Shown: positions 8,768 to 57,404 of the stretch, in pieces
How the letters are laid out: every line of letters begins with the position of its first letter
Position numbering within the stretch: position 1 is the stretch's first letter
DNA from: Limisphaerales bacterium
GTDB lineage: Bacteria > Verrucomicrobiota > Verrucomicrobiia > Limisphaerales > JAEYXS01
Direction of reading: 5' to 3'
NCBI GenBank assembly: GCA_965283725.1
Contig: CBDIPT010000001.1
Coordinates: forward strand, 719,730 to 783,729
DNA length: 64,000 nt
The notes under the pieces: model-generated
Told to the model about the DNA's origin: nothing
What the model saw: only the letters and a program-made list of their open reading frames with translations
Databases searched by the model: none
Translations under genes and position numbers: made by a program

Positions 8768-9453
8768 TTTTTGCCAGTGTTACGAGCGCGTTTGATGACG
8801 GCGAGCAGGAAATGCACGAGATGTTTCAGGCGTTCCTCGATCGCGGGCGTCTCCAGCAGCACCTGCCGTTCGGCGGGGCTGGTCAGGAGCATGCCGCCGA
8901 TGGCATCCACAAATATCTCGGGTTCCTCGATTTTTTCGATCTGGCGAAGAAATTGCTTATAGGATTCCGCGGTTTGGGCATCAACGGGCGAACTGGTCTC
9001 GTCGCCGGGCACTTTTTGGATGATCTCCGCGCCGGGATAGAGCCCTTCATCGAAGATCAGGGCGACCAGCTCGCGGGCTTTGCCCATGAGTGCATCGGCG
9101 GTGACGGGGTTGGCCGGAGCCGCGGGCAAAACCTCGATCTGATGCACCCGGTAGGGTTTGGACTGGGTCTGCTTGCCGAGTTGAATTCTGGTCAAACCTT
9201 GAACAATCAGGTGCGATGTTCCGTCTTTATTCTCGACGGAAGCGCGGATGAGGCCGATACCGGCTACTTCGGTGGGCGTTTCGCGGACCCGGTCAGGGTG
9301 CTGCATGGCCACGGAGAACATCCGGTGCGTGGCCAAGGCATCAGCCAGCATGGTGCGATAACGCGGCTCAAAGATATAGAGCGGCAGGATGGTATGCGGG
9401 AACAAAATAGCGTTCGGCAAGACCATCACCCCGATCTCTGACGGTAAATCCAT
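8764..9453 (-). CDS. LON N-terminal substrate-binding domain protein (no AAA or protease domain)
   Basis: IGVMVLPNAILFPHTILPLYIFEPRYRTML is the canonical start of the Lon N-domain. The protein is only 229 aa. Confidence 0.75.
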   Translation of the reverse strand: MDLPSEIGVMVLPNAILFPHTILPLYIFEPRYRTMLADALATHRMFSVAMQHPDRVRETPTEVAGIGLIRASVENKDGTSHLIVQGLTRIQLGKQTQSKPYRVHQIEVLPAAPANPVTADALMGKARELVALIFDEGLYPGAEIIQKVPGDETSSPVDAQTAESYKQFLRQIEKIEEPEIFVDAIGGMLLTSPAERQVLLETPAIEERLKHLVHFLLAVIKRARNTGKK

Positions 9454-9545
9454 GGCCGTAATGTAGAACTGGTCTGGCGGTATGCAAGCGGCACGGTGCG
9501 TGCTGATGCCTTTACAAATCGAATAACGAAAAGCAAAGTGAACTT

Positions 9546-10421
9546 ATGAAGTCGAAAGTGGCAATAATCGTTCTGGTGATCGTTTGCGGGATTCTCGCCC
9601 TCTGCTGGCGGCGTGACAAGTCTGAGGCCGCCAAGCAAAAGGAGGCCGATGCCCTGGTGATCCAGACGCGTGATGGCGAAGTGACCAAGCTCAAGGGTGA
9701 CCTGCACCAGCAGAAGCTCGTCAACGACAAGCTGGACAGCACGGTGCAAAACCTGACGCAGGAAACCCTGAGCCTCTCCAACAACCTGACCCGCACCTCG
9801 GCGGACCTGACGAAGACGAGCAGCGATCTCTCCAAGACCGCCGCCCAGTTGAAGCAGACTGCGCAAGAGGCGGAAGAGACGAAGCGCCGGGCGGAACAGG
9901 CGGCGGAGATCGCGAAGCAGGAAATCGCCAAGCGTGATGCCCAGATCGCCGAGCTGGAAGTGAACCGCGACCAGTTGACGAACAAGATGGCCGCGTTGAG
10001 CACCTCCATCCAGGGCTTGGAAAAGAATATCGCCGACACGCAGCAAAAGCTCACCGCCGCGCAAGGTGACCGGGAGTTCCTGCTGAAGGAATTGAAACGT
10101 TTGCAGACGGAAAAAGCCGAGCTGGAACGCCAGATGGCGGACCTCGATTTCCTGCGCAAGCAGATCTCGCAATTGCGGGAAGAGCTGAACATCCAGAAGC
10201 GCCTCGAGTGGATCCGCCGCGGCATCTACGGTGCCGGGGATAACCGCAAGGGTGGCCAGTTGATGACGGATGGCTTCATCAAGCCGCCGACCAGCACGAA
10301 GGAAGGCACCAACAGCGCACCGGGTCTCGAAGTGGAGATCAAGCGGGATGGTGGCGTGAAGATCAATTCAACGCCGACGAACGCCCCGGCCGCTCCCGCA
10401 CCTGCAACGGTGCCTAAATGA
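9546..10421 (+). CDS. Membrane-anchored coiled-coil protein, function unknown
   Basis: An N-terminal TM helix (VAIIVLVIVCGILALCW) is followed by about 200 aa of heptad-like, K/E/Q/L-rich sequence. It has an ATGA overlap with moaA. Confidence 0.6.
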   Translation: MKSKVAIIVLVIVCGILALCWRRDKSEAAKQKEADALVIQTRDGEVTKLKGDLHQQKLVNDKLDSTVQNLTQETLSLSNNLTRTSADLTKTSSDLSKTAAQLKQTAQEAEETKRRAEQAAEIAKQEIAKRDAQIAELEVNRDQLTNKMAALSTSIQGLEKNIADTQQKLTAAQGDREFLLKELKRLQTEKAELERQMADLDFLRKQISQLREELNIQKRLEWIRRGIYGAGDNRKGGQLMTDGFIKPPTSTKEGTNSAPGLEVEIKRDGGVKINSTPTNAPAAPAPATVPK

Positions 10422-11485
10422 GTCACGCCCAACTGCTGACCGATTCTTATGGCCGGGTGATGCGGGACCTTCGGGTCAGTGTCACCGACCGGTGTAACTT
10501 TCGCTGCCTCTACTGTCTGCCGGAGACGGAAGAGGCAGCGAATTTTTATCGTTCCAAGTTCGATATCCTCAAGAATCCCAATCCGGCCAAACCCATCGCG
10601 CTGAACTGGAAACCCAAGGCGCAGATACTCACGCTGGAAGAGATCGAGCGGGTGGTGCGGCTGTTCGCGGGCTTGGGCATCGAGAAGATACGCATCACAG
10701 GTGGCGAACCACTCTTGCGCAAAGGCGTGGAGCAGTTGATCGGTAACATTGCTAAGATCCCAGGGGTGCAGGATATCGCCATCACCACGAACGGGTTTCA
10801 TTTCCAACCGAAGGCGCAGGCCTTGCGCGCGGCCGGCTTGAAGCGGGTGAGTTTCAGTCTGGATTCACTGGACCGGGACAACTTCAAGAAAATCACGGGC
10901 CGGGATGGTTTGCAGGAAGTGCTGGATGGTATCCGGTTGGCGCGGCAATTGGGCTTTGCGCCCATCAAGGTGAATGCCGTGCTTATCCGCGGGGTGAATG
11001 ATCACGAGCTGGAAGCACTCGCGGAGTTTGCCCGCGCCGAGGACGTCTCGTTCCGTTTCATCGAGTTCATGCCGTTGGATTCCAAACATGCCTGGCTCAA
11101 GGAATTGGTTGTCAGTGCCAAGGAAATCCTGGCGCGTTTGCAGGCGAAGTTTGATCTGCAGCCGGTAAAGTCCACGAATGTCTCGGAGACGGCCAAGCGG
11201 TGGGCGTTCCCGGATGGGCGAGGGGAGATCGGCATCATCGCTCCAGTCAGCGAACCGTTCTGCGGCCACTGCAATCGCATCCGGCTGACGGCTGACGGCA
11301 AGATCCGCACCTGCCTGTTCAGCCTTGGTGAGCATGATCTGAAACCGCTGTTGCGCGGCGGGGCGAGTGATGAGGAGATTCGCCAGCAACTGAAGGGGAT
11401 CGTGTTGCAGAAGGAAGACCGGCACCACATAGGAGAACCGGAATTTCAGCAGCCGGAGCGCTCGATGAGTTGTATCGGGGGATAA
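10418..11485 (+). CDS. moaA: GTP 3',8-cyclase MoaA (radical SAM, molybdenum cofactor biosynthesis)
   Basis: LRVSVTDRCNFRCLYCLPE is the CxxxCxxC radical-SAM cluster motif. The C-terminal CGHCNRIRLTADGKIRTCLF is the second cluster motif. Confidence 0.9.
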   Translation: MSHAQLLTDSYGRVMRDLRVSVTDRCNFRCLYCLPETEEAANFYRSKFDILKNPNPAKPIALNWKPKAQILTLEEIERVVRLFAGLGIEKIRITGGEPLLRKGVEQLIGNIAKIPGVQDIAITTNGFHFQPKAQALRAAGLKRVSFSLDSLDRDNFKKITGRDGLQEVLDGIRLARQLGFAPIKVNAVLIRGVNDHELEALAEFARAEDVSFRFIEFMPLDSKHAWLKELVVSAKEILARLQAKFDLQPVKSTNVSETAKRWAFPDGRGEIGIIAPVSEPFCGHCNRIRLTADGKIRTCLFSLGEHDLKPLLRGGASDEEIRQQLKGIVLQKEDRHHIGEPEFQQPERSMSCIGG

Positions 11486-11516
11486 GGAAGTCAGTTCTCC
11501 CTCGTCATCTCGGGGG

Positions 11517-12485
11517 CTACCAAGGGAGGCCGTGAAAATTTGTCTTCAGCGGCGCATCGTCATTTAATTCCATCGTCAGATAGCCGCCATCTTTCAATAG
11601 TTGCATCCCGGCTAACGAAGGACAGAGTTGCACGTTGAATGGTTTCCATGCCCGAGCCCGATTCAGCGCTTGCGTGATGCGGCTGATGCCGGGACCCATG
11701 AAATGAACGGGCGGAAGACCGGACATCAATCTGGCTTGGCGGAAAATCAGATTGGAATGTAGGTGGCCGATGATGGTGCGCTCAATCTGCGGGGCAAAGG
11801 AACGGATAACGGCATCGTCCCACAGAAAGGGGATGGCCGTCGGGTCATGACAGAACAGGATGACGCGCTGCGAGGATTGGATGCCCCGAAACAACTCACG
11901 TATCTCCGCCATGTGCTGGTGGTGTTCAGCCAGCCACATGGCTTGTTCCTCAGCGGATTGATCACCCGTCATGGCGGGGACGGCTGCCAGTGAGGAGGTC
12001 ATGCCGATGATGACGTAGCGGCCTAATTCTATGCGCCAGCTCGTGGGGAGCTTAAGCGTTTCGCGGGTGGCTTTCAGGCTCGCCAGCTTCATGCCGCCGG
12101 TGCCAGCCCCGAGGCTTTTCTTCCCGAATTCGTGATCCCCGATCGTGGTGCGCAATTGCGGGCCGAAACGTTGGCGCAACTTCCCCAGACATTCTAAAGC
12201 GCTCGCGCAAGCGGCGTCGTCACTGACGCCGATAAACGCGGAATCGCAGGAGTAATCACCGTTCGCCACTACGAAGTCCGCAGTTGGGCATTCGGCGAGG
12301 AAACGATCAAGTTGATGGTTGTGGGCAAAAGGATTGCGCAGCCAGAGGTGATGCCGCCAGAAGCGGACGGCCCAGCGCCGGACGGGGTACGGGATGGCAC
12401 GAGACTCATAATCACTGCCGCGCGCCTGTTCGGCGGCGCCAGCGTAATGGATATCGCTTAAAATGACGAAGCGGTGCCGGGCCAT
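11517..12485 (-). CDS. Metallophosphoesterase family protein
   Basis: FVILSDIHYAG, VVANGDYS and IGHLH are calcineurin-like phosphoesterase motifs. I chose the start at ATG 12485 (MARHRF). Confidence 0.7.
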   Translation of the reverse strand: MARHRFVILSDIHYAGAAEQARGSDYESRAIPYPVRRWAVRFWRHHLWLRNPFAHNHQLDRFLAECPTADFVVANGDYSCDSAFIGVSDDAACASALECLGKLRQRFGPQLRTTIGDHEFGKKSLGAGTGGMKLASLKATRETLKLPTSWRIELGRYVIIGMTSSLAAVPAMTGDQSAEEQAMWLAEHHQHMAEIRELFRGIQSSQRVILFCHDPTAIPFLWDDAVIRSFAPQIERTIIGHLHSNLIFRQARLMSGLPPVHFMGPGISRITQALNRARAWKPFNVQLCPSLAGMQLLKDGGYLTMELNDDAPLKTNFHGLPW

Positions 12486-12614
12486 GCGCGGAAAAGGTGG
12501 CGGTTCGGGAGGGGGAGGGCAAGTCAGGGATTGGGATCGCCGGAGGGCGTCCCCCATTTTCTACGCCACGTGCCGCTTGCGCTTGGACGGGTTAAGCGCA
12601 TAATAACCAGCACA

Positions 12615-13505
12615 ATGCAGTTCATACGGGACATTCATAAGGCGTGCGCGCAGGCGCAGCGTCCGGCCATTTCGTTCGAATTCTTTCCGCCCAAGACGGC
12701 GGAAGGCGATGCGTCTCTCTTGGAGAAGACGATTCCCGAACTGATGTCCCTGCGTCCTGATTACTGCTCTGTCACCTACGGCGCGGGGGGCAGCACGCGG
12801 GACAAGACGTTGATGATCGTGGACCGCATCCAGCGCGAGCATAAGCTTACCGCGATGTCCCATCTGACGTGCGTGAACAGCACCAAGGATGAACTGGCAG
12901 CCGTGCTCAAGCAGGCGAAGGACTTGGGCATCAAAAATATCTTGGCCTTGCGCGGTGATCCGCCGGGCGGCACAGGCGAGTTCAAGAAGACCGAGGGCGG
13001 TTTTGAGTTCAGCTACGAGCTCGTGGCTTACTTGAAGCAGTTGAACGAGTTTTCCATCGGTGTGGCCGGCTTTCCGGAAGGGCACATTGCCTGCAAGGAA
13101 GGCAAGCACGTGGACTGGCAGCGGTTGGCCGCGAAGATTGCGCATGGCGCCGATTTCGTGGTCACGCAGTTGTTCTTCGATAACGCTGATTTCTTTGAAT
13201 TTCGCGATTACCTCACGAAGCTGGGCGTCAAAGTGCCGATCGTTCCGGGCATCATTCCGGTGATGAGCGGTTCCCAGATCAAACGCTTCACCGCGCTGTG
13301 CGGGGCGCAATTGCCCGCCAAGTTGCTCAGCCGTTTGGACCCGCTCGGCGACAATGATGAGGCCGCGAAAGAATTCGGCATCGAGTATGCCACGGAGCAA
13401 TGCCAGGAACTCATCCGAGGCGGCGTGCCGGGCATCCATTTCTACACCTTGAACAAGGCGTATTCTACGAGCCGCATCGTGAAAAACCTCAATCTGCCGA
13501 AGTAA
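12615..13505 (+). CDS. metF: Methylenetetrahydrofolate reductase
   Basis: ISFEFFPPKT, SVTYGAGGSTR, HLTC, LALRGDPP and GFPEGH are MetF signature blocks. I chose the start at ATG 12615 (MQFIRDIH). Confidence 0.9.
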   Translation: MQFIRDIHKACAQAQRPAISFEFFPPKTAEGDASLLEKTIPELMSLRPDYCSVTYGAGGSTRDKTLMIVDRIQREHKLTAMSHLTCVNSTKDELAAVLKQAKDLGIKNILALRGDPPGGTGEFKKTEGGFEFSYELVAYLKQLNEFSIGVAGFPEGHIACKEGKHVDWQRLAAKIAHGADFVVTQLFFDNADFFEFRDYLTKLGVKVPIVPGIIPVMSGSQIKRFTALCGAQLPAKLLSRLDPLGDNDEAAKEFGIEYATEQCQELIRGGVPGIHFYTLNKAYSTSRIVKNLNLPK

Positions 13506-13527
13506 ACGGCCTGGTTTTAAAAATAAA

Positions 13528-13558
13528 AAAGCCGCGCATCAACATGCGCGGCTTTTGC
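13528..13558. terminator. Bidirectional rho-independent terminator between the convergent metF and fadL-like genes
   Basis: GCCGCGCAT-caac-ATGCGCGGC forms a 9-bp GC-rich stem. It is flanked by an A-run upstream and a T-run downstream. Confidence 0.6.
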
Positions 13559-13573: not shown

Positions 13574-14794
13574 TCAGAACCGATACCCGACGGAAAAGTT
13601 CAGGGAATGGTTGAAGAATTTGAAGGTGCCGTCTGCAGATTGGCCGCCGATCGAGGGCGTGCTGCCCGTGATGGTGCGGGCGGGGCCGGTGATGATCTGA
13701 TACGAGACCGCCCAGCTCCACTTTTCCAATTGCCGACCGATACCAAAGCTGCCCACGTGCAGGTTGGTGTCCGGCGTCAGCGGGTTGAAGTTCACTTCGG
13801 AGGTCGAGTTCTCGCTGTAGAAGTAGCCGATGCTGGCGTAGTAACCATCCCTCAGCTTGCGGGTGATGCCGAACTCATAGAGGAACGAGGATTTCCAATT
13901 GAAAGCGAACGGTGTGTTGCCGGAAGCCTTTTCGAAAGTCACGGTGTTCAGGGAATCCCAATCCGTCCAATCGATGTTGAATTCAAAGTTCCAGTCCGGC
14001 GTGGGCCGGTAGGAGATGCCGCCCATGATATATTGGGGGAATTGGATGGTGGCCCGGGTGGTTTCCTCGGCGGCATAGGGCATGGCGACGGAGTGACCAC
14101 GGAAGGTCATCTCGGAAGGGCAACGGTAGTTGACCCCGAAAGCGAGCTTTTCATGCGGCTGCCAGCGGCTGGAGAGGGTGAACCCGTAGTCCCAGCCGAT
14201 CCCCTTGAACTTGAATTCATCCCCTGCAGTGGGCAGGAAAATGCCTTGGCGCAACTCGACGCGGCCATAATTGATCGTGGGGCCGACGGCGAAGGATAAC
14301 GAAGGCAGCGCTTGCCAGGCGATCACCGGATTCACCGTGGAATACATCAGGCGGCCTTCCAGAGCCATGGTGCGGAAACCGCTGGTCTCCGGCCATTCTA
14401 TGCCTAAACCAAAGGGGGCGTAAGTACCCACACCGAAAGAGAAGTCACTGTCTTTAAGGGAATGGACGAGATACATCTGCGGCACGGGCTGGACCTCGAA
14501 CAGGGAATGCGCGGTGCCGCCGGTGGGCGAATGGTAGGTCGAGTTGACTGAGGTGATGTAAAAGCCCAATTGAGCCTGGGTCCCCTCCAGTTGCGTGATA
14601 CCAGCGGGGTTGTAATACATCGCGGCCGGCGTATCCGCCGTCGCGGTGAAGGCATTGCCCCGGGCGATCGCCGCGGCATCCTGGTTGGCGATCCGGAAAC
14701 CGATCGCGTGGGTGGTGTTGGCGGTGAGCAGGCTGCTGGCCGCCAAGGTCAGCGCACAAAGCTGGTTCCGTTGGGTTTGGGTTGGAGTCCGCAT
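13574..14794 (-). CDS. FadL/OmpP1/TodX-family outer-membrane hydrophobic-compound channel
   Basis: It has a signal peptide followed by GFRIANQDAAAIARGNAFTATADTPAAMYYNPAGI, the conserved FadL N-terminal hatch region. The rest is an alternating beta-strand pattern ending in a terminal F. Confidence 0.8.
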   Translation of the reverse strand: MRTPTQTQRNQLCALTLAASSLLTANTTHAIGFRIANQDAAAIARGNAFTATADTPAAMYYNPAGITQLEGTQAQLGFYITSVNSTYHSPTGGTAHSLFEVQPVPQMYLVHSLKDSDFSFGVGTYAPFGLGIEWPETSGFRTMALEGRLMYSTVNPVIAWQALPSLSFAVGPTINYGRVELRQGIFLPTAGDEFKFKGIGWDYGFTLSSRWQPHEKLAFGVNYRCPSEMTFRGHSVAMPYAAEETTRATIQFPQYIMGGISYRPTPDWNFEFNIDWTDWDSLNTVTFEKASGNTPFAFNWKSSFLYEFGITRKLRDGYYASIGYFYSENSTSEVNFNPLTPDTNLHVGSFGIGRQLEKWSWAVSYQIITGPARTITGSTPSIGGQSADGTFKFFNHSLNFSVGYRF

Positions 14795-15126
14795 GGCTTT
14801 TGTTTAGTTGCCTGATGTCAGGCTTGTAGGGAAGTAAAAAATTGTCTTAGCATCGGCTAAATCCGTTTCCCCTTTAGCAAAATGTGCCAACTGGCCAGGG
14901 TATTTACATGAACCGCTTGCGCCTCAACAGTTTTGCCCGGTGCGGTGGTTTAGCCGGGGTGGCCGGAGTGGGCCAGAATCTTAACTGTAAATTCGCAAGT
15001 TCTTGGCTTGCAGAAGAAAAAACATTGTCCGGGGCTGGCTGATTCTGATAATCCATAACGCATTCTAAAGGGGAGGGATGAGTTGTATTTTTGTGACTTA
15101 ACGGGCGGTAGCGGCAGACGTATCAA

Positions 15127-16557
15127 ATGGAAAACGAAAATGTCATCGCACAGCCATCCCGGGACCGGGACAGCTTTATTGTGTGCCGAAATAGCCAGGG
15201 AGTTGAGGTTCGCGCCACGCTCCTTCGTTTAACGCGATATCTGGTTGTTTTCGAGGTCTACAATCCTTACAGCATTCTCCAGCTCTCGGAGGTGTTATCG
15301 GATTTCCGTATCATCATCCGTGACCGGCTCGTGTATTCCGGTCGCGCGGTCGTCAGCAATCTCGTCAACACCGGCATCGTGCTGGTTTGCGAGACCGCGC
15401 TGGATGAAGCGTGGGTGGATGTCGACTTCCTGGTTTCCAGCACGCAGCCGAACCGGTTGCGCGATGAATTCAACGAATTCATCACGGAATGGGGCAAAAA
15501 CCAGCGGGTCACGCCGGATTTCAAGGTGGTGGTCGCCGACATGCAGACGCTGCTGGCCGATCTCCGCCGTTGGCTGGAGCAGGTGGAACTGAGCATCCGC
15601 TCCGACCCCGGTGGCGACCGGCAAAAGCGCGAGCGCGACGTCATTTCGGAACTGAGCCATCCGATGTTGCCCGTGGTGAACGATTTGTTCATCCGTTTTG
15701 AGGACATCGCCCAGAAAATCGATACCGATCTCCAACCGATTCACCGCACCTATGTGAAACGGCAGTTGCATCCGCTCTTGTTGTGCTCGCCCTTCATGTA
15801 TCGCATCTATCAGAAGCCGCTGGGTTATGCCGGCGACTATGAGATGGTGAACATGATTTTGCGCGATCCCTATGAAGGCAGCTCGCTCTTCGCCAAGATC
15901 CTGAATGTCTACATCCTGAATCAGGCTCCTGCCGAGGCGCATCGGAACCGCGTCAAATATCTGACCCAACGTCTGGCGGAAGAGACCCGCCGGGTATCAC
16001 GCTTGGGACGTCCCTGCCGGGTGCTCAATCTGGGCTGCGGACCGGCGAAAGAGATCAATGACTTCCTGGAACAGGACGATATCTGTGACCGGGCGCAATT
16101 GACCTTGCTGGATTTCAACGACGAAACGCTGGAAGCCACCGGGCAGAAGCTGAATGAGGTGAAGGCGCGTTACCGCCGGTTCACGGGCTTGCAGTTCACG
16201 AAGAAATCCGTGCACCAGATCCTGAAGGAAGCCAGCAAACCGATGTTCCTTGGGCAGCAGTATGATTTCATCTATTGCGCGGGGCTGTTCGATTACCTGA
16301 GCGACCGTATCTGCAAGCGGTTGATGACGATTTTTTACGAACAGTTGGCACCGGGTGGGCTGGTGGTGGCGACGAATGTGGATTCGTCCAACCCCATCAA
16401 GAACATCATGGAATATATCTTCGAGTGGCACTTGGTGTATCGGGATGACAACCAGTTGAGCAATCTGATACCGGACGATGCCACCAAAGGGATGTGGTCG
16501 GTGAAAGCTGATCACACGGGGGCGAATATTTTTGTGGAAGTCCGCAAACCTCTCTAA
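15127..16557 (+). CDS. Large class I SAM-dependent methyltransferase with an N-terminal accessory domain; PhcB-like architecture
   Basis: The C-terminal half has SAM motif I (VLNLGCGPAKE), post-I LLDFNDE and FIYCAGLFDYL. The roughly 270-aa N-terminal region is of unknown fold. It directly abuts a sensor kinase gene: its TAA stop ends at 16557 and the kinase ATG begins at 16558. Confidence 0.6.
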   Translation: MENENVIAQPSRDRDSFIVCRNSQGVEVRATLLRLTRYLVVFEVYNPYSILQLSEVLSDFRIIIRDRLVYSGRAVVSNLVNTGIVLVCETALDEAWVDVDFLVSSTQPNRLRDEFNEFITEWGKNQRVTPDFKVVVADMQTLLADLRRWLEQVELSIRSDPGGDRQKRERDVISELSHPMLPVVNDLFIRFEDIAQKIDTDLQPIHRTYVKRQLHPLLLCSPFMYRIYQKPLGYAGDYEMVNMILRDPYEGSSLFAKILNVYILNQAPAEAHRNRVKYLTQRLAEETRRVSRLGRPCRVLNLGCGPAKEINDFLEQDDICDRAQLTLLDFNDETLEATGQKLNEVKARYRRFTGLQFTKKSVHQILKEASKPMFLGQQYDFIYCAGLFDYLSDRICKRLMTIFYEQLAPGGLVVATNVDSSNPIKNIMEYIFEWHLVYRDDNQLSNLIPDDATKGMWSVKADHTGANIFVEVRKPL

Positions 16558-17940
16558 ATGGTGAACCAACAGGACGTCCAGACGGCCTTTGCCGAGTACG
16601 ATAAGAAGGTGCGAATCAGCAATTCGCGCCTCGGGGCGATTTGGGCCATGATCTTGATGCCAGCGGGCATTACGCTGGACCTGATGGTCTATCCCGGCCT
16701 GTGGAAGGAGTTCTTCTGGCTGCGCGTGCTCTGTTCGATTTCCGTCTGGGGCGTGCGGGTTCTGTTCAATACGCCCTTTGGTGACCGGAACTATCGTTTC
16801 CTGGGGATGGTTTGGTACATGCTTCCGGCCTTCACCATCGCCGGTATGATCTATGCCTCGGACGAGGTGACGTCGCCTTACTATGCGGGGTTGAACATCG
16901 TCTTGATCGGTGCCGGGTTGTTCTTGCCGTGGACCTATTTTGAAAATTTGCTGGCCTGCCTGCTGGTCACGGCGATGTATGCCCTGGCCGTCCTGTTCAT
17001 CGAGCCGACCTTTGAGTTTCACCTGGTGTTCAACAACCTTTACTTCCTGTTGCTCACCGGCCTCATCGTGGTGGTTTCCAGCTTTTATACGGGGGATAAC
17101 CGCTACCGGGAGTTCGCGTTGCGCTTTGAACTGGACCGGAACAAACAGACTTTGGAAGAGGCGAACCGGCAGCTGAAGGAGTTGGACGAAGTGAAGACGC
17201 GGTTCTTCGCCAACATCAGCCATGAACTGCGCACACCGTTGACGCTTTTGTTGGCCCCGATTGAGTCGATGCGCCGGCAGAAGGCACATCTCTTCGATGA
17301 TCAGACCCGTGAATGGTTATCAACCATGGAGGCCAATGGTCTCCGGTTGTTGAAGCTGATCAACGACCTGCTGGATTTGGTCAAGCTGGAGTCCGGCCAC
17401 ATGCAAGTGAAGAACGAACAGGTCAGCCTCAGTGAATTCCTCCGGGGCCTGTGCAGTTCCGTGCAGAAGATGGCGGATGACAAGCGCGTGCACTTGGGAA
17501 CAGTGGTGGATGACAGCCTCGGCAGCGTTCGCACGGACCGGGATAAACTGGAGAAGATCATGCTGAACTTGGTCTTTAACGCCATCAAGTTCACCCCGGC
17601 AGGCGGGCAGGTGACCTTAAAAGCCAAAAAGGACGGTAATTTCTTCCAGATCGAGGTGATCGATACCGGTATGGGTATTGCGGCCAAGAACCTTCCCTAT
17701 CTGTTTACCCGCTTTTGGCAGGCGGATACCTCCGCCAGAAGAAAATATCAAGGAACAGGTATCGGTCTTGCCTTGGTGAAAGAATTGGTCGAAATTCAGG
17801 GCGGATCAGTCACGGCGGCAAGTGTCGAAGGACAGGGCACCAATATGACGGTGCGCTTGCCGCTGACTGCGGAAAAGGAGGAAGGAGTACCCGTGTCACC
17901 TAACATGCCTGTACCTATCACCAGAATCAGCCGTCCTTGA
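16558..17940 (+). CDS. Polytopic membrane sensor histidine kinase (PhcS-like position)
   Basis: About 6 predicted TM helices fill the first 190 aa. They are followed by a coiled coil, a HisKA H-box (FFANISHELRTPLT), an N-box (LVFNAIKFT) and G-boxes (DTGMGI, GTGIGLALV). Confidence 0.85.
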   Translation: MVNQQDVQTAFAEYDKKVRISNSRLGAIWAMILMPAGITLDLMVYPGLWKEFFWLRVLCSISVWGVRVLFNTPFGDRNYRFLGMVWYMLPAFTIAGMIYASDEVTSPYYAGLNIVLIGAGLFLPWTYFENLLACLLVTAMYALAVLFIEPTFEFHLVFNNLYFLLLTGLIVVVSSFYTGDNRYREFALRFELDRNKQTLEEANRQLKELDEVKTRFFANISHELRTPLTLLLAPIESMRRQKAHLFDDQTREWLSTMEANGLRLLKLINDLLDLVKLESGHMQVKNEQVSLSEFLRGLCSSVQKMADDKRVHLGTVVDDSLGSVRTDRDKLEKIMLNLVFNAIKFTPAGGQVTLKAKKDGNFFQIEVIDTGMGIAAKNLPYLFTRFWQADTSARRKYQGTGIGLALVKELVEIQGGSVTAASVEGQGTNMTVRLPLTAEKEEGVPVSPNMPVPITRISRP

Positions 17941-17974
17941 GGACAAAGCCGAACCTTCACCGCAAGGTGAGTGG

Positions 17975-19243
17975 TTGCAAGGGCTATACCGTCGTGCGGA
18001 GTTGTTCCCGTCACTCACGGCCTTGAAGGAAAGTATCCGCCCGTTGCAACCGGCGGGCAAAGGACAACGTGCCAAAGTGCTCGTCGTGGATGATGAGCCG
18101 GACATGCTCCGGTTCCTCAAATCCGAGCTGCTGCAGGAGTATGAAGTGATCGAAGCGGCAGACGGACGGCAGGCGTTGGCTCTTGCAGCGCAATTCCTCC
18201 CGGACATCATCTTGTGTGACATGATGATGCCGGAGATGGACGGCATCCAGGTATGCCGTGAGTTGCGCGCCAAGAGCACCACGCAGAACATTCCGGTCTT
18301 GTTGCTCACCGCGCGGGCAGATGAGGACACGAAGCTGACGGCTCTGTCCCATGGGGCCAGTGACTTTCTGAGCAAACCGTTCTCGGTCACCGAACTGAAC
18401 GTCCGGTTGAAGAACCTCATGACCGCCTACCAGATGCAGCGCAAGCTCGCGCGGCAGAACCAGGTGCTCGAGGCCACGCTGGAACAGCTCAAGGAGACGG
18501 AGACGCAACTCGTGCAGACCGAGAAGCTCGCTTCCTTGGGCCGGATGAGCGCCGGCATCATCCATGAAATCAACAATCCGTTGAACTATGCCAAGACGGG
18601 TCTGTTCACCTTGCGGAAGAAGTCCAAATACATCACAGCCGAGCAGAAGGAAGAGTTCGAAGAGGTGTTGAAGGATGTGGAAGACGGCGTTGATCGCGTG
18701 AAGAACATCGTTTCGGATTTGCGCACCTTCAGTCATCCCAAGGAGAACCAGCTGGAACCGATGCCGATCAGCAAGCCGATCACTTCGGCCCTGCGTTTTC
18801 TTTCTGGCGAGATCAAGGACAAGGTCGTCTTGCACCAGAACTTTGACGCCCAGCAGATCATCCAGGGCAACGAGAGCACCTTGATCCAGGTGATCACGAA
18901 TCTGCTCCAGAACGCCGTCGATGCCATGACGGCCAAAGGGGCGAAAGGCGATGCGCCGACCATCTGGCTGGAAGACAAATTGACCGAGAACCATTATCGG
19001 TTGATTATACGCGACAATGGCCCCGGCATCCCAGATGATGTGATGAACAAAATCTTTGACCCCTTCTTTACGACCAAAGATGTGGGCCAGGGGATGGGGC
19101 TGGGGCTGACTATCTGTTACCGGATCATGCAAATGCACGGGGGGCGTATCCACGTGCGTACAGAACTGGGCAAGTTCACCGAATTCACTTTGGAGTTCCC
19201 GTTGAAAGCGGTCCCGGCGGAAGCCGTCATGCAGGAAGCCTGA
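17975..19243 (+). CDS. Receiver-first hybrid: N-terminal REC domain plus HisKA-like/HATPase_c domain (PhcR-like architecture)
   Basis: REC motifs are VLVVDDEPD, ILCDMMMPEMDG and SKPF. An H-box-like IIHEINNPLN follows, then the ATPase blocks NLLQNAVDAM, DNGPGIP and GMGLGL. Confidence 0.85.
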   Translation: MQGLYRRAELFPSLTALKESIRPLQPAGKGQRAKVLVVDDEPDMLRFLKSELLQEYEVIEAADGRQALALAAQFLPDIILCDMMMPEMDGIQVCRELRAKSTTQNIPVLLLTARADEDTKLTALSHGASDFLSKPFSVTELNVRLKNLMTAYQMQRKLARQNQVLEATLEQLKETETQLVQTEKLASLGRMSAGIIHEINNPLNYAKTGLFTLRKKSKYITAEQKEEFEEVLKDVEDGVDRVKNIVSDLRTFSHPKENQLEPMPISKPITSALRFLSGEIKDKVVLHQNFDAQQIIQGNESTLIQVITNLLQNAVDAMTAKGAKGDAPTIWLEDKLTENHYRLIIRDNGPGIPDDVMNKIFDPFFTTKDVGQGMGLGLTICYRIMQMHGGRIHVRTELGKFTEFTLEFPLKAVPAEAVMQEA

Positions 19244-19263
19244 TCAATTTTTAACCAAGCACT

Positions 19264-20505
19264 ATGCAGAACTTTTACGACTACAAGAAGTACCTGATCA
19301 TCTACGTGGATGACGAAGAGAAGTCGCTGAAATACTTCTCCCGCGCCTTTGCCGACGAGTTTCGTATCCTGACAGCGACGAACGCCCAGGATGGGTATCA
19401 ATTGCTGGAGGCCAACCGCGACATGGTAGCGGTCCTGATGACGGATCAGCGCATGCCGGGTGAGAAGGGTGTGCAATTGCTCGAGAAAGCCCGCCAAGTC
19501 AGCCCGCGTTCCATCCGTATCTTGGCGACGGCCTATTCCGATCTCGATGCCGCCATCGATGCCGTGAACTCCGGAGCCATTTACAAATACGTCACCAAGC
19601 CTTGGGATATCCCGCAGTTGGAGACGACCCTGAAGCGTGGCATCGAGTTCTTCATCGTGCAACGGGAGCGCGATCAGCTCATGCGCGAGAAGCTTTCCGT
19701 GCTGCACAACATGATGATCACGGACCGCGTGGTCAGCCTGGGCGTGATGGCGGCGGGGCTGAGCCATCACCTGCGGAATCCGCTAGTCGCCGTCCGGACC
19801 TTCCTCGATCTGGCCCCGGCCAAATTGCAGGAAGAGAAGGTGACGATGGATGAGTTGCGCAATCCCAATTTCTGGCGGGATTTCTATGACCATGTGCGCG
19901 CCCAGGTGGATCGCATCTCTTCCCAGTTGGATAATCTGGGTCTGCTCGGTGCCACGGCGCGCTCGCGCGATTCGGTAAAGCTCTCGGAGGTGGTCACCGA
20001 GGCCTTGCAGGTTTCATCCCCGATGCTGGCCGAGCGCAAGATCACCTTGGAGAACCGTGTGCCGGACAATCTGCCTTTGCTCAGCACCGAAAGGCCGCAA
20101 TTCATCCGGATGCTGCAACTCCTGTTGCAAGAGACGGTGGCGCAGCTCGGCGCGGGTGGTCACATCTGGCTTTCGGCGGAAGCCGTGGAAGGCGGCATCA
20201 AGCTGGTGGTGGAAGATGACGGTCCGGGGTTGCCGGCGGAATCCTTGCGCAAGGTGTTTGATCCTTTCTTTGCCCGGAGTGGTCATCCCGAGGACTTCGG
20301 CATCAATTTGATGGCCTTTTACTTCCTCGCGTATCACTTGGGCGGCCGGGTCCGGGCCGAGGCCCGCGATCCGAAGGGGGCCAAGTTCACGCTGCAATTC
20401 CCGTTGGAGAAATCCACGCAGATATCGACCAATGATGAGCGCGACTTCATCAACAAGGTGCTCTTGAACGACGCCTTGTGGGAGAAGTTGCTCTCGGGTG
20501 AGTAA
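19264..20505 (+). CDS. Receiver-first protein: REC domain plus histidine-kinase-like domain (PhcQ/RpfG-like receiver)
   Basis: REC motifs are IIYVDDEEK, LMTDQRMPGEKG and YKYVTKPWD. These are followed by LSHHLRNPL (H-box-like) and DDGPGLP. The G2 region looks degenerate. Confidence 0.8.
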   Translation: MQNFYDYKKYLIIYVDDEEKSLKYFSRAFADEFRILTATNAQDGYQLLEANRDMVAVLMTDQRMPGEKGVQLLEKARQVSPRSIRILATAYSDLDAAIDAVNSGAIYKYVTKPWDIPQLETTLKRGIEFFIVQRERDQLMREKLSVLHNMMITDRVVSLGVMAAGLSHHLRNPLVAVRTFLDLAPAKLQEEKVTMDELRNPNFWRDFYDHVRAQVDRISSQLDNLGLLGATARSRDSVKLSEVVTEALQVSSPMLAERKITLENRVPDNLPLLSTERPQFIRMLQLLLQETVAQLGAGGHIWLSAEAVEGGIKLVVEDDGPGLPAESLRKVFDPFFARSGHPEDFGINLMAFYFLAYHLGGRVRAEARDPKGAKFTLQFPLEKSTQISTNDERDFINKVLLNDALWEKLLSGE

Positions 20506-20525
20506 ACCGCCAACCGAGACATCCT

Positions 20526-21824
20526 GTGAATCCATCAACCAGCCACAAACCGGGAGCCGTCGAGCCGAAGCCAACTAAAACTGGTGCCAGCGCGGACCAA
20601 TCCCCACGGCGCACGTTGCTGGTAGTGGATGACGATGAGAGCCCGCGTCAGGCGATCGGGATGATCTTTGGCGATGACTATGAACTGCTGCTGGCGGAGA
20701 ACGGCCAGCAGGCGCTGGACTTGGCGCGCACGCACCTGATTGATACAGCCATCGTGGATATCCGCATGCCCGGCATGTCGGGTATCGAAGTGCTGGCGGG
20801 CTTGAAGCAGATCGATCCCGCCATCGAAGTGGTCATCGTTACCGCTTATCAAACATTGGAGACCGCGCGGCAGGCGTTGCGGCTGGGAGCGCGTGATTAT
20901 CTGATGAAGCCTTTCGGTGTGCCGGAGATCCGCCAGGTGGTGACGGCGGCGATGGAGCATCGTAATGCGACGGGTCGGTTGATCGAGAACGCCCGGTTGC
21001 TGAGCGAATTGCAGGAAGAGTTGGAGACACAACGCCAACAGGTGGATTCATCCCACATCAAGGGCGAACTTTACGCGGGTATCATTCATGATCTGAACAG
21101 CCCGTTGACGGTGGTCTCTGGCATGGCTGAACTGCTGGGCGAGCGCTTGAGCGGCGTGACGTTCGTTAGCGGGGAACAACTGTCGCACATGCGGCAGGAA
21201 GTGTCCCAGCTCTCCAAGCACGTAGAGCGGTGTCTGGAGATTTCCCGGCGTTATCTGGAGCTGTTCCGCAAACGCGCCCAGAGTGAGCCAGAAACCCGCA
21301 TTGCTTTGGCGATGCGTAATCTGCAAGAATTGCTGCTCATCCATCCGGCAGCACGGGCGAACCAGCTCATCTTCGAATCGCAAGTGGGTGAGGCCTTGGC
21401 CCAGATGAACAGCCTGGATCTGGAGCAGGTGCTGGCGAATCTCATCCTGAACGCTTTGACCTGCACGAGCCAGAGCCACACGGTCTGGGTCACGGCGCGG
21501 TTGCGATCTGAGCCGCTCTCGGTGCAGGAATTGGAAGCTGGCCCCAAAGCGGTAGTCATCAATGAATCACGGTTTCAGAATAAACCGCCCTTTGTGGAGT
21601 TGGTAGTGCGTGATGACGGTAAAGGTATTCCCGAAGCCGTGATGCAGCGCATGTTCCAACCGTATTTTTCCGCGCGTGAGGCCGGGCAGGGCACTGGCCT
21701 GGGGCTCTCCGTGGTTCGCCACCTGGTTTCAGAGACGACAGGCCTGCTCCGGGTGGAGAGTGAATACGGTCACGGAGCCAAGTTCACCCTGATGTTGCCG
21801 GCCATTACTTCGCCCAAGCACTGA
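20526..21824 (+). CDS. Receiver-first hybrid: REC domain plus HisKA/HATPase_c
   Basis: REC motifs are LLVVDDDESP, IVDIRMPGMSG and MKPF. These are followed by IIHDLNSPL (H-box), NLILNAL, DDGKGIP and GTGLGLS. Confidence 0.85.
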   Translation: MNPSTSHKPGAVEPKPTKTGASADQSPRRTLLVVDDDESPRQAIGMIFGDDYELLLAENGQQALDLARTHLIDTAIVDIRMPGMSGIEVLAGLKQIDPAIEVVIVTAYQTLETARQALRLGARDYLMKPFGVPEIRQVVTAAMEHRNATGRLIENARLLSELQEELETQRQQVDSSHIKGELYAGIIHDLNSPLTVVSGMAELLGERLSGVTFVSGEQLSHMRQEVSQLSKHVERCLEISRRYLELFRKRAQSEPETRIALAMRNLQELLLIHPAARANQLIFESQVGEALAQMNSLDLEQVLANLILNALTCTSQSHTVWVTARLRSEPLSVQELEAGPKAVVINESRFQNKPPFVELVVRDDGKGIPEAVMQRMFQPYFSAREAGQGTGLGLSVVRHLVSETTGLLRVESEYGHGAKFTLMLPAITSPKH

Positions 21825-34912: not shown

Positions 34913-36628
34913 ATGGCTGGCCAAAAGAAGCAGTCAGGCGGTTCCTCGCAGCCGCCTAAACCGGAAGAAGCCGTTCCCGGCGAATCCGCGGTGCCTCCTA
35001 TTTCCGATATCCTAAGTCGCGAAGAGCTGGATTCTCTTTCCACCCTGCAGTTGGTCGATCTCATCGCCAGCAAGATGCCGCTGCGCAGCAGTGTTTTGCT
35101 GGATCTAGTTTATTTGCGCGACCGCATCACGGCCATCGAGGAGATGAATGATCAGGCGCGTGAGGTCATCGAGAAGCTGGATCAAGCGGTGGAGAAGCTT
35201 CGCTCGCCGGCATTTCGCGTGGGGACGTTTCTCGCACCGTTGGCGCAGGAGCAGGTGCACATCTGTCTTGGTGGTACGGATTACGTATGCAAGGTGGATC
35301 CGGCGATGCCCATCACGAGTTTGCAGATCGGCCAGCGTGTGTTGTGCAATGAAGCGTTCGTGGTGATCCGCAGTCTGGGTTTTGATCAACACGGGCCGAT
35401 CGTGCGGGTGGATGAGACGCTTTCCGATGGCCGCTTGCGCATCGGTCAGGAAACCGGCGCGATGCCGTTGGTGGTGCAACGCTCGGCGCTCTTGCAGAAG
35501 GAGAAGCTGAAATCCGGCATGGAAGTGCGGCTGGATGCGAATCAACGCGTGGCCCTCGAAGTCATCGGCCACGGCAAGCGAATTGACCGTACTTTGGATG
35601 TCGTAGGCGAGGTGCCATGGTCTTCCATCGGTGGACAAACCGAGGCGGTGAAATCTATTCGTGATGCCATCGAACTGCCGTTCCTGCATCGCGAACTCTA
35701 CAAACGGTTTGATCATCGCATCCCGAAAGGTTTCCTGCTGCATGGGCCGCCGGGTTGCGGCAAGACGCTCTTGGGTAAAGCGACGGCTTACAACCTGCGC
35801 CAGCAGTTGAAGCAGCAAACGGGTGTGGATCATCCGGAGTTCTTCCTGCACATCAAGGGGCCGGAGCTGCTCAACATGTGGGTGGGCGAATCCGAGCGGC
35901 AGGTACGTGATCTTTTCCAGCAATGTCGTGAGCGGGCGGCGGAAGGCTATCTCGCGTTTCTCTTCATGGATGAGGCGGAATCGCTTCTAGGTGTGCGGCA
36001 TGGCGGCCGGTTCAATTCCATGTCGAGCACGTTGGTGCCGATGTTCTGTGCAGAGATGGATGGCTTGGAAGCGCTGGCAAATGTTGTCGTCATCCTAGCG
36101 TCCAATCGGGCGGACTTGATTGATCCGGCGATTTTGCGACCGGGGCGCATCGACCGGAAAATCAAGGTGGCGCGGCCAGACAAAGAAGGAGCGCGGGCTA
36201 TTTATGAGATCTATTTACGCGATACCTTGCCATTGGCCGAACCGGGTGCGGAACTGGCCCGGCGCATGACGGAAGCGCATTTTGCGAAGACGGAGGAGAA
36301 CGCATTTCTTGAAGTGAATTACCGGAGTGGACGGAAAGAGACGTTCTATCGCGGCGATTTTGCGAGTGGTGCGATCATTGCAGCCGTGGTGGAGCGTGCG
36401 AAAGCCGGAGCCATACAGCGATCGATTACCAGTGGTAAGGAATCACCGATCACATATGAGGATTTGTTGGCGGCGTTGCGACAGGAGTATGCGGAGAGCA
36501 GCTTGTTCCCGTCGAATGACATGACGGAGGATTGGTTGAAGCTTACGGATCTGGACCCGGAGAACGTGGCGCGCTTGACGCCGATCCGGCCACGCAAGGC
36601 AATGGGGTATGCGTCACAAATCGTGTAG
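34913..36628 (+). CDS. Proteasome-associated AAA+ ATPase (ARC/Mpa-like)
   Basis: It has an N-terminal coiled coil (RDRITAIEEMNDQAREVIEKLDQAVEKL) and an OB-like region. The AAA module has Walker A (GPPGCGKT), Walker B (FLFMDEAES) and ILRPGRIDRKI. The C-terminal region parallels Mpa (GDFASGAIIAAVVERAK). Confidence 0.85.
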   Translation: MAGQKKQSGGSSQPPKPEEAVPGESAVPPISDILSREELDSLSTLQLVDLIASKMPLRSSVLLDLVYLRDRITAIEEMNDQAREVIEKLDQAVEKLRSPAFRVGTFLAPLAQEQVHICLGGTDYVCKVDPAMPITSLQIGQRVLCNEAFVVIRSLGFDQHGPIVRVDETLSDGRLRIGQETGAMPLVVQRSALLQKEKLKSGMEVRLDANQRVALEVIGHGKRIDRTLDVVGEVPWSSIGGQTEAVKSIRDAIELPFLHRELYKRFDHRIPKGFLLHGPPGCGKTLLGKATAYNLRQQLKQQTGVDHPEFFLHIKGPELLNMWVGESERQVRDLFQQCRERAAEGYLAFLFMDEAESLLGVRHGGRFNSMSSTLVPMFCAEMDGLEALANVVVILASNRADLIDPAILRPGRIDRKIKVARPDKEGARAIYEIYLRDTLPLAEPGAELARRMTEAHFAKTEENAFLEVNYRSGRKETFYRGDFASGAIIAAVVERAKAGAIQRSITSGKESPITYEDLLAALRQEYAESSLFPSNDMTEDWLKLTDLDPENVARLTPIRPRKAMGYASQIV

Positions 36629-57100: not shown

Positions 57101-57404
57101 GGGCGCCTTGTCCTTGTTTCTCTTTTTCGAAAGCGGTCTTTTCCTCCAGTGGTATCCTTTTGGCGAACCCCACGGCATTAAAGGCCGGATAACGGAGGCC
57201 CAGTTCCATGTTGGCGATGTAGCGGGTCCACTCGTCAGGCTCGACCTTTTCACTGGCCTGAAAGAAGCCCCGCATGGTGGTGAGGGCCGAGAGGTGATGC
57301 CGGACTTTCAGATCCATGTCCCGATGGCTTTCCCGGACCATGAGACGGAAATGCGCCGCTTCCTTGTCCTTCACAGTATCCTTGACGCGGCTCCAGACCA
57401 CCAC
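54156..57404 (-). CDS. Hybrid sensor histidine kinase: CHASE domain, 3 PAS/PAC domains, HisKA, HATPase_c and a C-terminal REC
   Basis: It has a CHASE-like periplasmic region, a TM helix (LSIVGGLLISAALFGITW) and repeated PAS blocks. These are followed by the H-box GIAHDFNNIL, the ATPase blocks QDEGTGIP and GSGLGLA, and the REC motifs ILVMDDDE, TIMDLTVPGGMGG and SKPY. The N-terminus is probably incomplete (see findings). Confidence 0.85.
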   Translation of the reverse strand: MVVWSRVKDTVKDKEAAHFRLMVRESHRDMDLKVRHHLSALTTMRGFFQASEKVEPDEWTRYIANMELGLRYPAFNAVGFAKRIPLEEKTAFEKEKQGQGAPNYRLTNTVSNVDYFPLTLLSPEQLIPLNEQAFNLAAIPEALKTMELAAETGKPEATQAITLSLWPDNQKKSYILLLLPIYNRTKVAGLSKVEGYLVGFLELERLFSVLLENTRRDLLNFTISEELPQSPRQQLYPPDNRSIVRAYPVAADFREARTFVFASRAWLLDIEAQEAFFDTSENYLPQLSIVGGLLISAALFGITWGQVRARSLAEKLSGNLAASEERFRLVNKATNDIVYDWDVPKDRITWNEAMSLSFNYAPEKIAPSVQWWEERVHPLDRVRVVRGLESALKKGGEFWADEYRFLRGDGNYSTVIDRGYILRDEKGEVIRMIGSMMDITDRKKAEEARYRSEQKLKLHFEQTPLAVIEWNLSFQAVDWNPGAEKTFGYTAQEAIGKHASELIVPEASRRHVNEIWQSLLLANRHGQRSTNQNCTKDGRIIVCDWYNTPVVDRDGKVISVITLAMDVTEQRHFADALAEEKELLTVTMRSIGEAVIATDTAENIVLINRVAEHLLGCHQNDVIGHPLSRWLKLQHLKTGMMVENPVTKVLRANGQISLHSQQAMLVGVPIERRISYSCNPIYGGDSHLLGSVLVFRDVSDEARTAEELLKASKLESLGILAGGIAHDFNNILTVIIGNISIAKMQTPASSSASTRLDEAEKASLKARDLTLQLLTFAKGGAPIKQTASITELLRDTAGFVLHGSKAQCVFDLEPHLWPVEVDEGQISQVIDNLVINAVQAMPKGGRILVSSHNVTLEANSGLHLPAGKYVQVCVQDEGTGIPPEILPKIFDPYFTTKASGSGLGLATSYSIVRNHNGLMTVQSIVGEGTIFKVYLPASDKPLKKDNSDTTHFIRRQGRILVMDDDERIRELLKSMLEALGYQVEVTANGNEAVNSYRDAMSAGRRFDATIMDLTVPGGMGGKEALNLIKDLDPKVRAIVSSGYSNDPIMANHRENGFVGVLSKPYKIQDLAKTLESTIQPAG

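Follow-up and report, generated by a model that had tools for sequence, protein, structure and literature searches.

The DNA analysed here (the window) is a 64,000-nt stretch of contig CBDIPT010000001.1, and positions 13574-21824 of it carry genes for a methyltransferase, a membrane sensor kinase, receiver-kinases and a divergent FadL-family channel that resemble the Phc signalling system (phcBSRQ) of Ralstonia. In Ralstonia, PhcB is a methyltransferase dependent on S-adenosylmethionine (SAM), making methyl 3-hydroxymyristate or methyl 3-hydroxypalmitate. On sequence comparison, the 476-aa methyltransferase of the window is almost certainly a full-length homologue of PhcB, and the membrane module of the adjacent kinase is almost certainly homologous to the module of PhcS. 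The region is probably a Phc-family signal-synthase/receptor operon in a Pedosphaera-like Verrucomicrobium. The affiliation to Verrucomicrobia is independent of the cassette, because it comes from a comparison of IF-2: the window IF-2 is closest to those of Verrucomicrobiota metagenome-assembled genomes (MAGs; 75%), Pedosphaera sp. (71%), and Pedosphaera parvula (65%). The features of the region are as follows.

13527-13556 (-), terminator-like hairpin with a 13-bp stem and a T-run, just past the FadL stop
13574-14794 (-), FadL/TodX-family outer-membrane channel for hydrophobic molecules (Pfam), divergent from the operon
14795-15126, divergent intergenic region of 332 bp, with a candidate promoter-like site at 15025-15052 (+)
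15127-16557 (+), PhcB-family SAM-dependent methyltransferase of 476 aa, putative signal synthase
15172-15402 (+), predicted PilZ-like six-stranded beta-domain of the methyltransferase, aa 16-92 (AlphaFold2 and Foldseek)
15448-16002 (+), helical region of the methyltransferase, aa 108-292 (AlphaFold2), with KPLGYAGDY at aa 230-238, nt 15814-15840
16015-16545 (+), catalytic domain with a SAM-binding Rossmann fold, aa 297-473; its motif I is VLNLGCGPAKE, nt 16021-16053
16558-17940 (+), HK1, the N-terminal part of the hybrid sensor kinase, ending at a frameshift-made stop
16633-17079 (+), six-segment membrane sensor module in HK1, aa 26-174 (hydropathy)
17913-17914 (+), extra base (CC vs C) splitting the hybrid kinase gene (alignment with the related locus L084)
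17975-19243 (+), RK2, the C-terminal part of the hybrid kinase, with a receiver and the second kinase core
19264-20505 (+), RK3, PhcQ-like receiver protein with a degenerate kinase-like C-terminus
20526-21824 (+), RK4, receiver-kinase of PhcR-like architecture

The original prediction, made from the sequence letters, had described six open reading frames (ORFs), their domains and a SAM motif, and all were found at the positions it gave by ORF check and in Pfam. Methyltransferase and kinase also adjoin without a gap as it had claimed, the kinase gene beginning at the base after the methyltransferase stop.

Methyltransferase and its homology to PhcB

No PhcB model exists in Pfam or NCBIfam, and the window methyltransferase matches generic methyltransferase models only. 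Class-I methyltransferase domains (Methyltransf_31, 23, 25, and 12) were recognized in Pfam only at residues 297-428, with the motif VLNLGCGPAKE at residues 299-309. In the BLASTP comparison with PhcB that had been proposed for 15127-16557, the protein aligned with the orthologue of Ralstonia sp. R-29 along nearly its full length (residues 15-472 of 476), with 42% identity and E 5e-122, and it is 40% identical to PhcB of Cupriavidus pinatubonensis. A likeness confined to the Rossmann core had been named as the result that would speak against a phc-like system; the identity to R-29 PhcB is 47% in the N-domain and 42% in the helical region, compared with 41% in the Rossmann fold. The two non-Rossmann regions have Z-scores of 37 and 63 against shuffled sequence.

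Close homologues in JGI bear, among the matches listed, the KEGG product name phcB, and the homology is already implicit in these automated KEGG/IMG labels. Because the KEGG name is only a pipeline label, real Phc loci were searched for. Cluster look-ups of 20 representatives gave no Ralstonia name. When plasmids were searched with tblastn, Paraburkholderia graminis proved to have a full-length homologue, with genes for a kinase and response regulators behind it, and the scan of GTDB genomes was made with a family alignment headed by this protein. The scan returned at least 80 loci of Betaproteobacteria, among them loci from four species of Ralstonia and many from Cupriavidus, and the four-gene phcBSRQ-like pattern is repeated in 46 of them. 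The locus taken as reference, on chromosome 1 of Ralstonia sp. R-29, has ORFs of 464, 447, at most 384, and 339 aa; the published sizes are 464-468 aa for PhcB, 368-374 aa for PhcR, and 336-337 aa for PhcQ (PMC8578825). R-29 phcBSRQ is preceded, at a distance of about 640 bp, by a response-regulator gene, and such a gene, phcX, has been described upstream of the phc genes (PMC10653808). PhcB of R-29 is 67% identical to PhcB of C. pinatubonensis, the species of strain JMP134, in which a complete Phc system has been reported, and this identity is within the reported range (PMC2842291). Judged by its gene sizes, its phcX-like neighbour and the 67% identity to Cupriavidus, the R-29 reference locus is a genuine phcBSRQ.

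The whole methyltransferase was modelled in AlphaFold2 (AF2) with a mean predicted local distance difference test (pLDDT) of 80, as a beta-domain at residues 16-92, a helical part at 108-292, and a Rossmann fold at 297-473. The pLDDT of the helical region is mostly above 85, and KPLGYAGDY in this region is invariant in an 18-sequence family-wide alignment. Residues 1-292 are not covered by any Pfam model, with no match at E up to 10 for either residues 1-107 or 108-292. A sequence search of solved structures with the methyltransferase gave no useful match. In Foldseek, the closest solved folds are 3ocj, which is an uncharacterised methyltransferase of Bordetella parapertussis, and small-molecule or polyketide synthase (PKS) methyltransferases; no protein methyltransferase is among them. 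The helical cap and the Rossmann half (residues ~175-476) are shared with 3ocj (TMt 0.63) and with short class-I methyltransferases of about 260-300 aa from rhizobial plasmids (26-31% identity in tblastn), but these proteins have neither the PilZ-like N-domain and the first helices nor a kinase linkage.

The N-domain, modelled alone with a more diverse alignment, has an AF2 pLDDT of 82. Its Foldseek neighbours in PDB are almost all PilZ domains (MrkH, BcsA, PP4397, VCA0042, YcgR, and Alg44), with E about 1e-2 and TMq of 0.55-0.64. Pfam gave no PilZ match for the N-domain at E up to 10, and the cyclic di-GMP motifs RxxxR and (D/N)xSxxG are neither recognizable nor conserved in the N-domain alignments, as judged by eye. 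According to the models, the N-domain common to the PhcB family has a PilZ-like fold. The same domain is predicted in Ralstonia PhcB at residues ~9-85 (L047), and no link between PhcB and a PilZ-like fold was found in the literature searched. Arg29 of the window N-domain is invariant in 52 close homologues and is aligned with Arg22 of PhcB; the PhcB mutation R22C, in the N-domain, lowers signal output (PMC6989110). PhcQ was described to act on signal production and not on transduction to PhcA (PMC6989110), and because of this report the regulation of the synthase by a receiver protein seems a reasonable idea.

Split hybrid kinase and the receiver-kinases

HK1 has HisKA and HATPase_c domains and a weak MASE8 match over its membrane part in Pfam. 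Six hydrophobic segments with very short loops were recognized by hydropathy at its residues 26-174, and the layout of PhcS is the same. When profiles of the membrane modules of window-type kinases and of PhcS were aligned in hhalign, the probability was 100%, with E 8e-40 and 31% identity over 177 columns. The MASE8 (PF20968) score of the window kinase is 18.4 bits, under the cutoff of 26.2 bits, and the orthologous hybrids in loci L084, L002, L085, and L087 have unmarked precomputed MASE8 matches. Ralstonia PhcS has no MASE8 match at E<0.01, though it is homologous to the window module by the profile-profile comparison. In NCBIfam, the window kinases gave generic two-component matches only, all below cutoff.

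The first, classical kinase core, in HK1, carries His222 and complete H, N, G1, and G2 boxes. RK2 has the receiver Asp82 and a second core with His197 in a HEINNP H-box, again with complete H, N, G1, and G2 boxes. The kinase core of PhcS is closest to the RK2 core (hhalign score 440, 35% identity); the first core scores 181. The phospho-His that functions in PhcS is His230 (PMC11960443), and this residue is needed for sensing the signal that PhcB makes (PMC8578825, PMC11960443); it sits in an H-box of the HEINNP type, which the window has in RK2. In locus L084, a 97%-identical relative, HK1 and RK2 are one gene of 894 aa, and a fused hybrid of about 850-945 aa is present in all loci with at least 3 kb downstream (37/37). 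The original prediction of three receiver-first kinase-like proteins after a kinase with six transmembrane segments therefore holds for the ORFs and domains seen, but the kinase and the first of the three are one fused gene in the relatives. By sequence comparison, PhcS is equivalent to the window-type hybrid minus the first kinase core and the internal receiver.

RK2, RK3, and RK4 each consist of Response_reg, HisKA, and HATPase_c in Pfam. The phospho-acceptor Asp is kept in all three receivers, and there is no DNA-binding domain in the receiver-kinase proteins of the operon. Of the four kinase cores, all but one have intact catalytic His, Asp, and ATP boxes. RK3 is the best match of PhcQ, with 43% identity over receiver and linker in hhalign (score 354) and 39% over residues 12-248 in BLASTP (E 1e-43). 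It keeps Asp61, His168, and the G1 box, but its N and G2 boxes are missing; in Ralstonia PhcQ, whose C-terminal region is not a kinase, none of the four boxes (H, N, G1, and G2) is left. From its sequence, RK3 looks like an intermediate state. The receiver of RK3 and PhcQ resembles the receivers of HD-GYP-type regulators (NosR-family model, E 5.6e-36, receiver only). RK4 has Asp78, His188, and complete ATP-binding boxes, and is aligned with PhcR over the full length with an hhalign score of 309. PhcR is a soluble protein with a receiver and a histidine-kinase-like part and has no DNA-binding domain; RK2, RK3, and RK4 all align with it full-length, however, with scores of 273-334 and no clear one-to-one partner.

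The claim that gene order and architecture mirror the phc operon is thus correct for part of the cassette. In common with Phc, the synthase methyltransferase is homologous along its whole length, including the non-Rossmann 60%, the kinase directly downstream has the same six-segment membrane sensor module, a PhcS-type HEINNP core is present, and the receiver proteins, one of them PhcQ-like, have no DNA-binding domains. The differences are in the sensor, which is a fused hybrid of ~890 aa with an extra core and receiver while PhcS has the membrane module and the PhcS-type core only, and in the PhcQ-like protein, which comes before the PhcR-like one and still has a kinase domain, though a partly degenerate one. 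Window-type loci often have a FadL or OprB channel gene attached and have no PhcA or PhcX nearby, and the host phylum is Verrucomicrobiota.

Conservation, proposed mechanism, and alternatives

The FadL gene was matched by Pfam PF03349 with E 4.6e-37 and 127.9 bits (cutoff 29.7 bits) over profile positions 3-371 of 421, in agreement with the FadL-family channel that had been placed divergently upstream. The neighbourhood was compared in a set of 80 metagenome loci with methyltransferases 51-67% identical to that of the window. The hybrid kinase always directly follows the methyltransferase, and usually one or two receiver-kinases of ~420 aa come next. In 19 of the 48 loci with enough flank, a FadL-family gene is located upstream of the methyltransferase at a distance of up to 2 kb; it is divergent as in the window in 11 and co-directional at about 150 nt in 8. 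An OprB-family porin gene is in the FadL position in four loci without FadL, so that outer-membrane channel genes are present in 23/48 in total. After clustering of all flanking ORFs, the FadL-family gene was the sole further recurrent neighbour. FadL and cassette occur together in different flanking contexts, namely the window and L084 vs L085. Because the cassette recurs in different genomic contexts, the clustering of the operon genes is not due to chance. The terminator-like hairpin suggests that FadL is a monocistronic unit; in the promoter and terminator scan, sites were no more numerous than in shuffled sequences, with the exception of this FadL terminator. The Rfam scan revealed one distant tRNA and no riboswitch near the operon.

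Several further neighbours were recorded. The OprB genes (L089 6268-7620, L147 303-1724, L149 1048-2556, and L158 2340-3926) are directly upstream of the methyltransferase and co-directional with it. A gene with a lysyl-phosphatidylglycerol-synthase C-terminal-like domain (PF09924) precedes OprB in L089, L149, and L158; L159 has such a gene immediately before the methyltransferase, and no OprB gene was detected there. In one sub-clade with co-directional FadL, a ~600-aa HATPase-receiver protein is encoded ~3 kb upstream on the opposite strand (L095 3182-5005, L098, L100, L110, and L140) and is possibly an additional part of the system. A FabG-like short-chain dehydrogenase gene is upstream in about five loci, one of which also has, downstream, genes for a ketoacyl synthase of the FabF type and a methyltransferase like ICMT (neighbours noted at L122 5413-6429 and at L002 1-419 and 7850-9624). 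The short-chain dehydrogenase, FabF, and ICMT neighbours were too sporadic and generic to be accepted as substrate-supply genes. Genes of the methyl cycle are metF in the window (12474-13505) and in L084, and metK with ahcY in L001 (7032-9628); a linkage of the cassette to this cycle was rejected, as it is non-recurrent across 85 loci.

On the basis of orthology and context, it is rather probable that a hydrophobic methyl ester is made and serves as an extracellular, density-reporting signal, which is sensed in the membrane by the hybrid kinase, with FadL aiding its crossing of the outer membrane. The substrate O-methylated by the methyltransferase would be a carboxylate of the fatty-acid type, in the simplest case a 3-hydroxy fatty acid, and the product a neutral membrane-permeant ester. 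The ester would exit and re-enter across the outer membrane with help of the adjacent FadL channel, and on accumulation it would partition into the inner membrane, where the membrane module of the hybrid kinase would bind it. Binding would alter autophosphorylation and a multi-step relay, running from the first core to the internal receiver, then to the second (PhcS-type) core, and finally to the PhcQ-like and PhcR-like receivers. The output could reach unlinked targets by protein-protein contact, and feedback on the synthase is possible, as reported for PhcQ, with the PilZ-like N-domain as a candidate regulatory handle.

Several points weigh against this signalling operon. The PhcB references are congeneric Ralstonia and Cupriavidus orthologues, and PhcB of R. 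solanacearum itself is not among them; an identity of 42% leaves room for an acyl substrate other than the PhcB one. Ralstonia has nothing that corresponds to the first kinase core or the internal receiver. The FadL linkage is found in under half of the loci (19/48). Across 85 loci, neither a PhcA (LysR) gene nor a DNA-binding regulator was found beside the cassette. Where a MAG is labelled as a taxon other than Verrucomicrobia, the label may come from a binning error. Finally, in comparison with L084 the window has a 1-bp insertion at ~17913-17914 (CC for C), and therefore the frame is shifted and a stop appears at 17938-17940. This indel may be a sequencing or assembly error or a real lesion.

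If the lesion is real, the cassette of this genome could be decaying or inactive, with the membrane sensor uncoupled from the PhcS-type core by the frameshift, which would concern the strain and not the family. The insertion and the stop, together with the fusion of the gene in every relative examined, agree with such a decay. All other ORFs are intact and catalytic motifs conserved, however, the downstream part has an in-frame TTG start 35 nt past the stop, and PhcS and PhcR are naturally separate genes in Ralstonia. A 1.19-Mb contig with an identical IF-2 hints, moreover, at a long-read assembly, where short-homopolymer indels would be common errors. An inactive copy is considered quite unlikely.

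The genes could also be Phc homologues serving a private, cis-acting cue, in which the methyl ester reports the cell's own fatty-acid/SAM status or envelope state to the membrane kinase, and FadL is for uptake of exogenous lipids. In favour of this, the cassette has no conserved output partner, DNA-binding or otherwise, and the great breadth of the family (712 clusters at 50% identity, E<1e-30) is not usual for species-specific signals. Conservation of the methyltransferase is very strong, with 62-72% identity across many contigs among the matches listed, and methyl-cycle genes sometimes adjoin, as in the window, L084, and L001, but are non-recurrent as neighbours. The orthologous pair, on the other hand, is a demonstrated extracellular signal system in Ralstonia and Cupriavidus (PMC8578825, PMC2842291, PMC10653808), and the outer-membrane channel genes in 23/48 loci fit a molecule that crosses the envelope. 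This private role is the main rival reading, but it is unlikely. The methyltransferase could otherwise act on a protein, such as the kinases in an adaptation methylation of the CheR type. In favour of this, the enzyme is tightly coupled to the kinases, two homologues have a weak precomputed match to the CheR domain (PF01739), and docking or regulation could be the role of the PilZ-like N-domain. The enzyme is, however, a full-length orthologue of PhcB, which has been described as a signal synthase (PMC8578825, PMC10653808), its closest folds are small-molecule/PKS methyltransferases with no CheR among the top 50, and the window protein itself has no CheR match in Pfam or NCBIfam. From the fold neighbours and the PhcB orthology, protein methylation was rejected as highly improbable.

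Related systems, range, and remaining features of the window

In the alpha-hydroxyketone system Cqs (CqsA, CqsS), a synthase gene is clustered with the gene of a polytopic, loop-poor kinase with six transmembrane segments that senses a hydrophobic fatty-acid-derived signal within the membrane, followed by a phosphorelay. The alpha-hydroxyketone system Lqs (LqsA, LqsS, LqsR) works alike (PMC10653808). The receiver proteins of these systems are without classical DNA-binding outputs, as in the window. They are nevertheless not homologous to the window cassette, as the synthase is a PLP (pyridoxal phosphate)-dependent acyltransferase and not a SAM methyltransferase, and no sequence relationship was detected. 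The diffusible signal factor (DSF) system of Xanthomonas and Burkholderia (RpfF, RpfC, RpfG) has the same fatty-acid-derived type of signal, a hybrid membrane kinase that contains a receiver of its own, and a separate receiver protein that has no DNA-binding domain. Its synthase is a crotonase, however, its output is an HD-GYP phosphodiesterase, and it has no methyltransferase, so that the likeness is a functional analogy together with generic receiver similarity. RK2 is aligned full-length with the model of LvrB from the Leptospira hybrid kinase/receiver pair LvrA/LvrB (140 bits) and has the same REC-HisKA-HATPase architecture. The scores are far under the model cutoff of 500 bits, and LvrA/LvrB has neither a methyltransferase nor a PhcS-type membrane module; the likeness is in architecture only.

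The methyltransferase family has 4,646 clusters of 50% identity at E<=1e-3 and at least 712 at E<=1e-30, the latter mostly full length. In a crude midpoint-rooted neighbour-joining tree, Betaproteobacterial phcB is one compact clade among many deep lineages, and the fused-hybrid architecture occurs on several distinct branches. Where a source is named for a close homologue, among the matches listed, it is a Verrucomicrobia-type MAG, apart from single MAGs labelled Chloroflexi and Omnitrophica. In the literature, the phc cluster is described as restricted to Betaproteobacteria within Proteobacteria (PMC10653808), and a 2026 review lists phc as an 'unusual' Ralstonia system (PMC13220807). The original prediction held that such a system was not described in Verrucomicrobia, and indeed no relevant paper joining phcB and Verrucomicrobia was found in the literature searched. 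The cassette, its variant architecture, the channel linkage, and its range appear to be undescribed.

A full-length pair of PhcB and PhcS-module homologues is thus present in Verrucomicrobiota, conserved in every related locus examined and within a family of hundreds of clusters. It is possible, though somewhat short of probable, that Phc signalling is a streamlined branch of an old and widespread cassette abundant in Verrucomicrobiota and other soil and freshwater lineages, from which PhcS would have arisen by loss of the internal kinase-receiver unit and PhcQ by decay of the kinase domain. The common form of such a cassette is tentatively a methyltransferase with the PilZ-like domain, a hybrid kinase with the membrane module, receiver-kinases, and often an outer-membrane channel. 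Volatile fatty-acid methyl esters could then be a common language of soil and freshwater communities, where Verrucomicrobia are abundant and poorly understood. For research on Ralstonia, the comparison offers an evolutionary frame for PhcR and PhcQ as decayed receiver-kinases and for the uncharacterised 60% of PhcB, that is, the PilZ-like N-domain and the helical region. It is also relevant to quorum-quenching biocontrol and to cross-talk with the wilt pathogen.

L003, on the 494-kb conjugative plasmid pPHS1_P of Paraburkholderia graminis, is a phc-like operon at 8980-13355. In it, a 134-aa receiver-only protein is in the position of PhcR, its kinase-like part lost. L078 and L081 encode Burkholderiales-type phcB, 53-58% identical to the Paraburkholderia protein, on contigs of Synechococcus and Rickettsiales MAGs; these placements are probably binning errors, or else transfers.

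Elsewhere in the window, a Pup-proteasome-type AAA ATPase is encoded at 34913-36628 (TIGR03689, 428 bits, under the 505-bit cutoff). A PEP-CTERM/PrsT-like TPR protein of 965 aa at 48907-51804 and a BatA/BatB-like VWA-TPR protein of 679 aa at 61494-63533 were both recognized by matches under the model cutoff. A PAS-containing hybrid histidine kinase of 1082 aa with a C-terminal receiver, unrelated to the cassette, is encoded at 54156-57404 (-).

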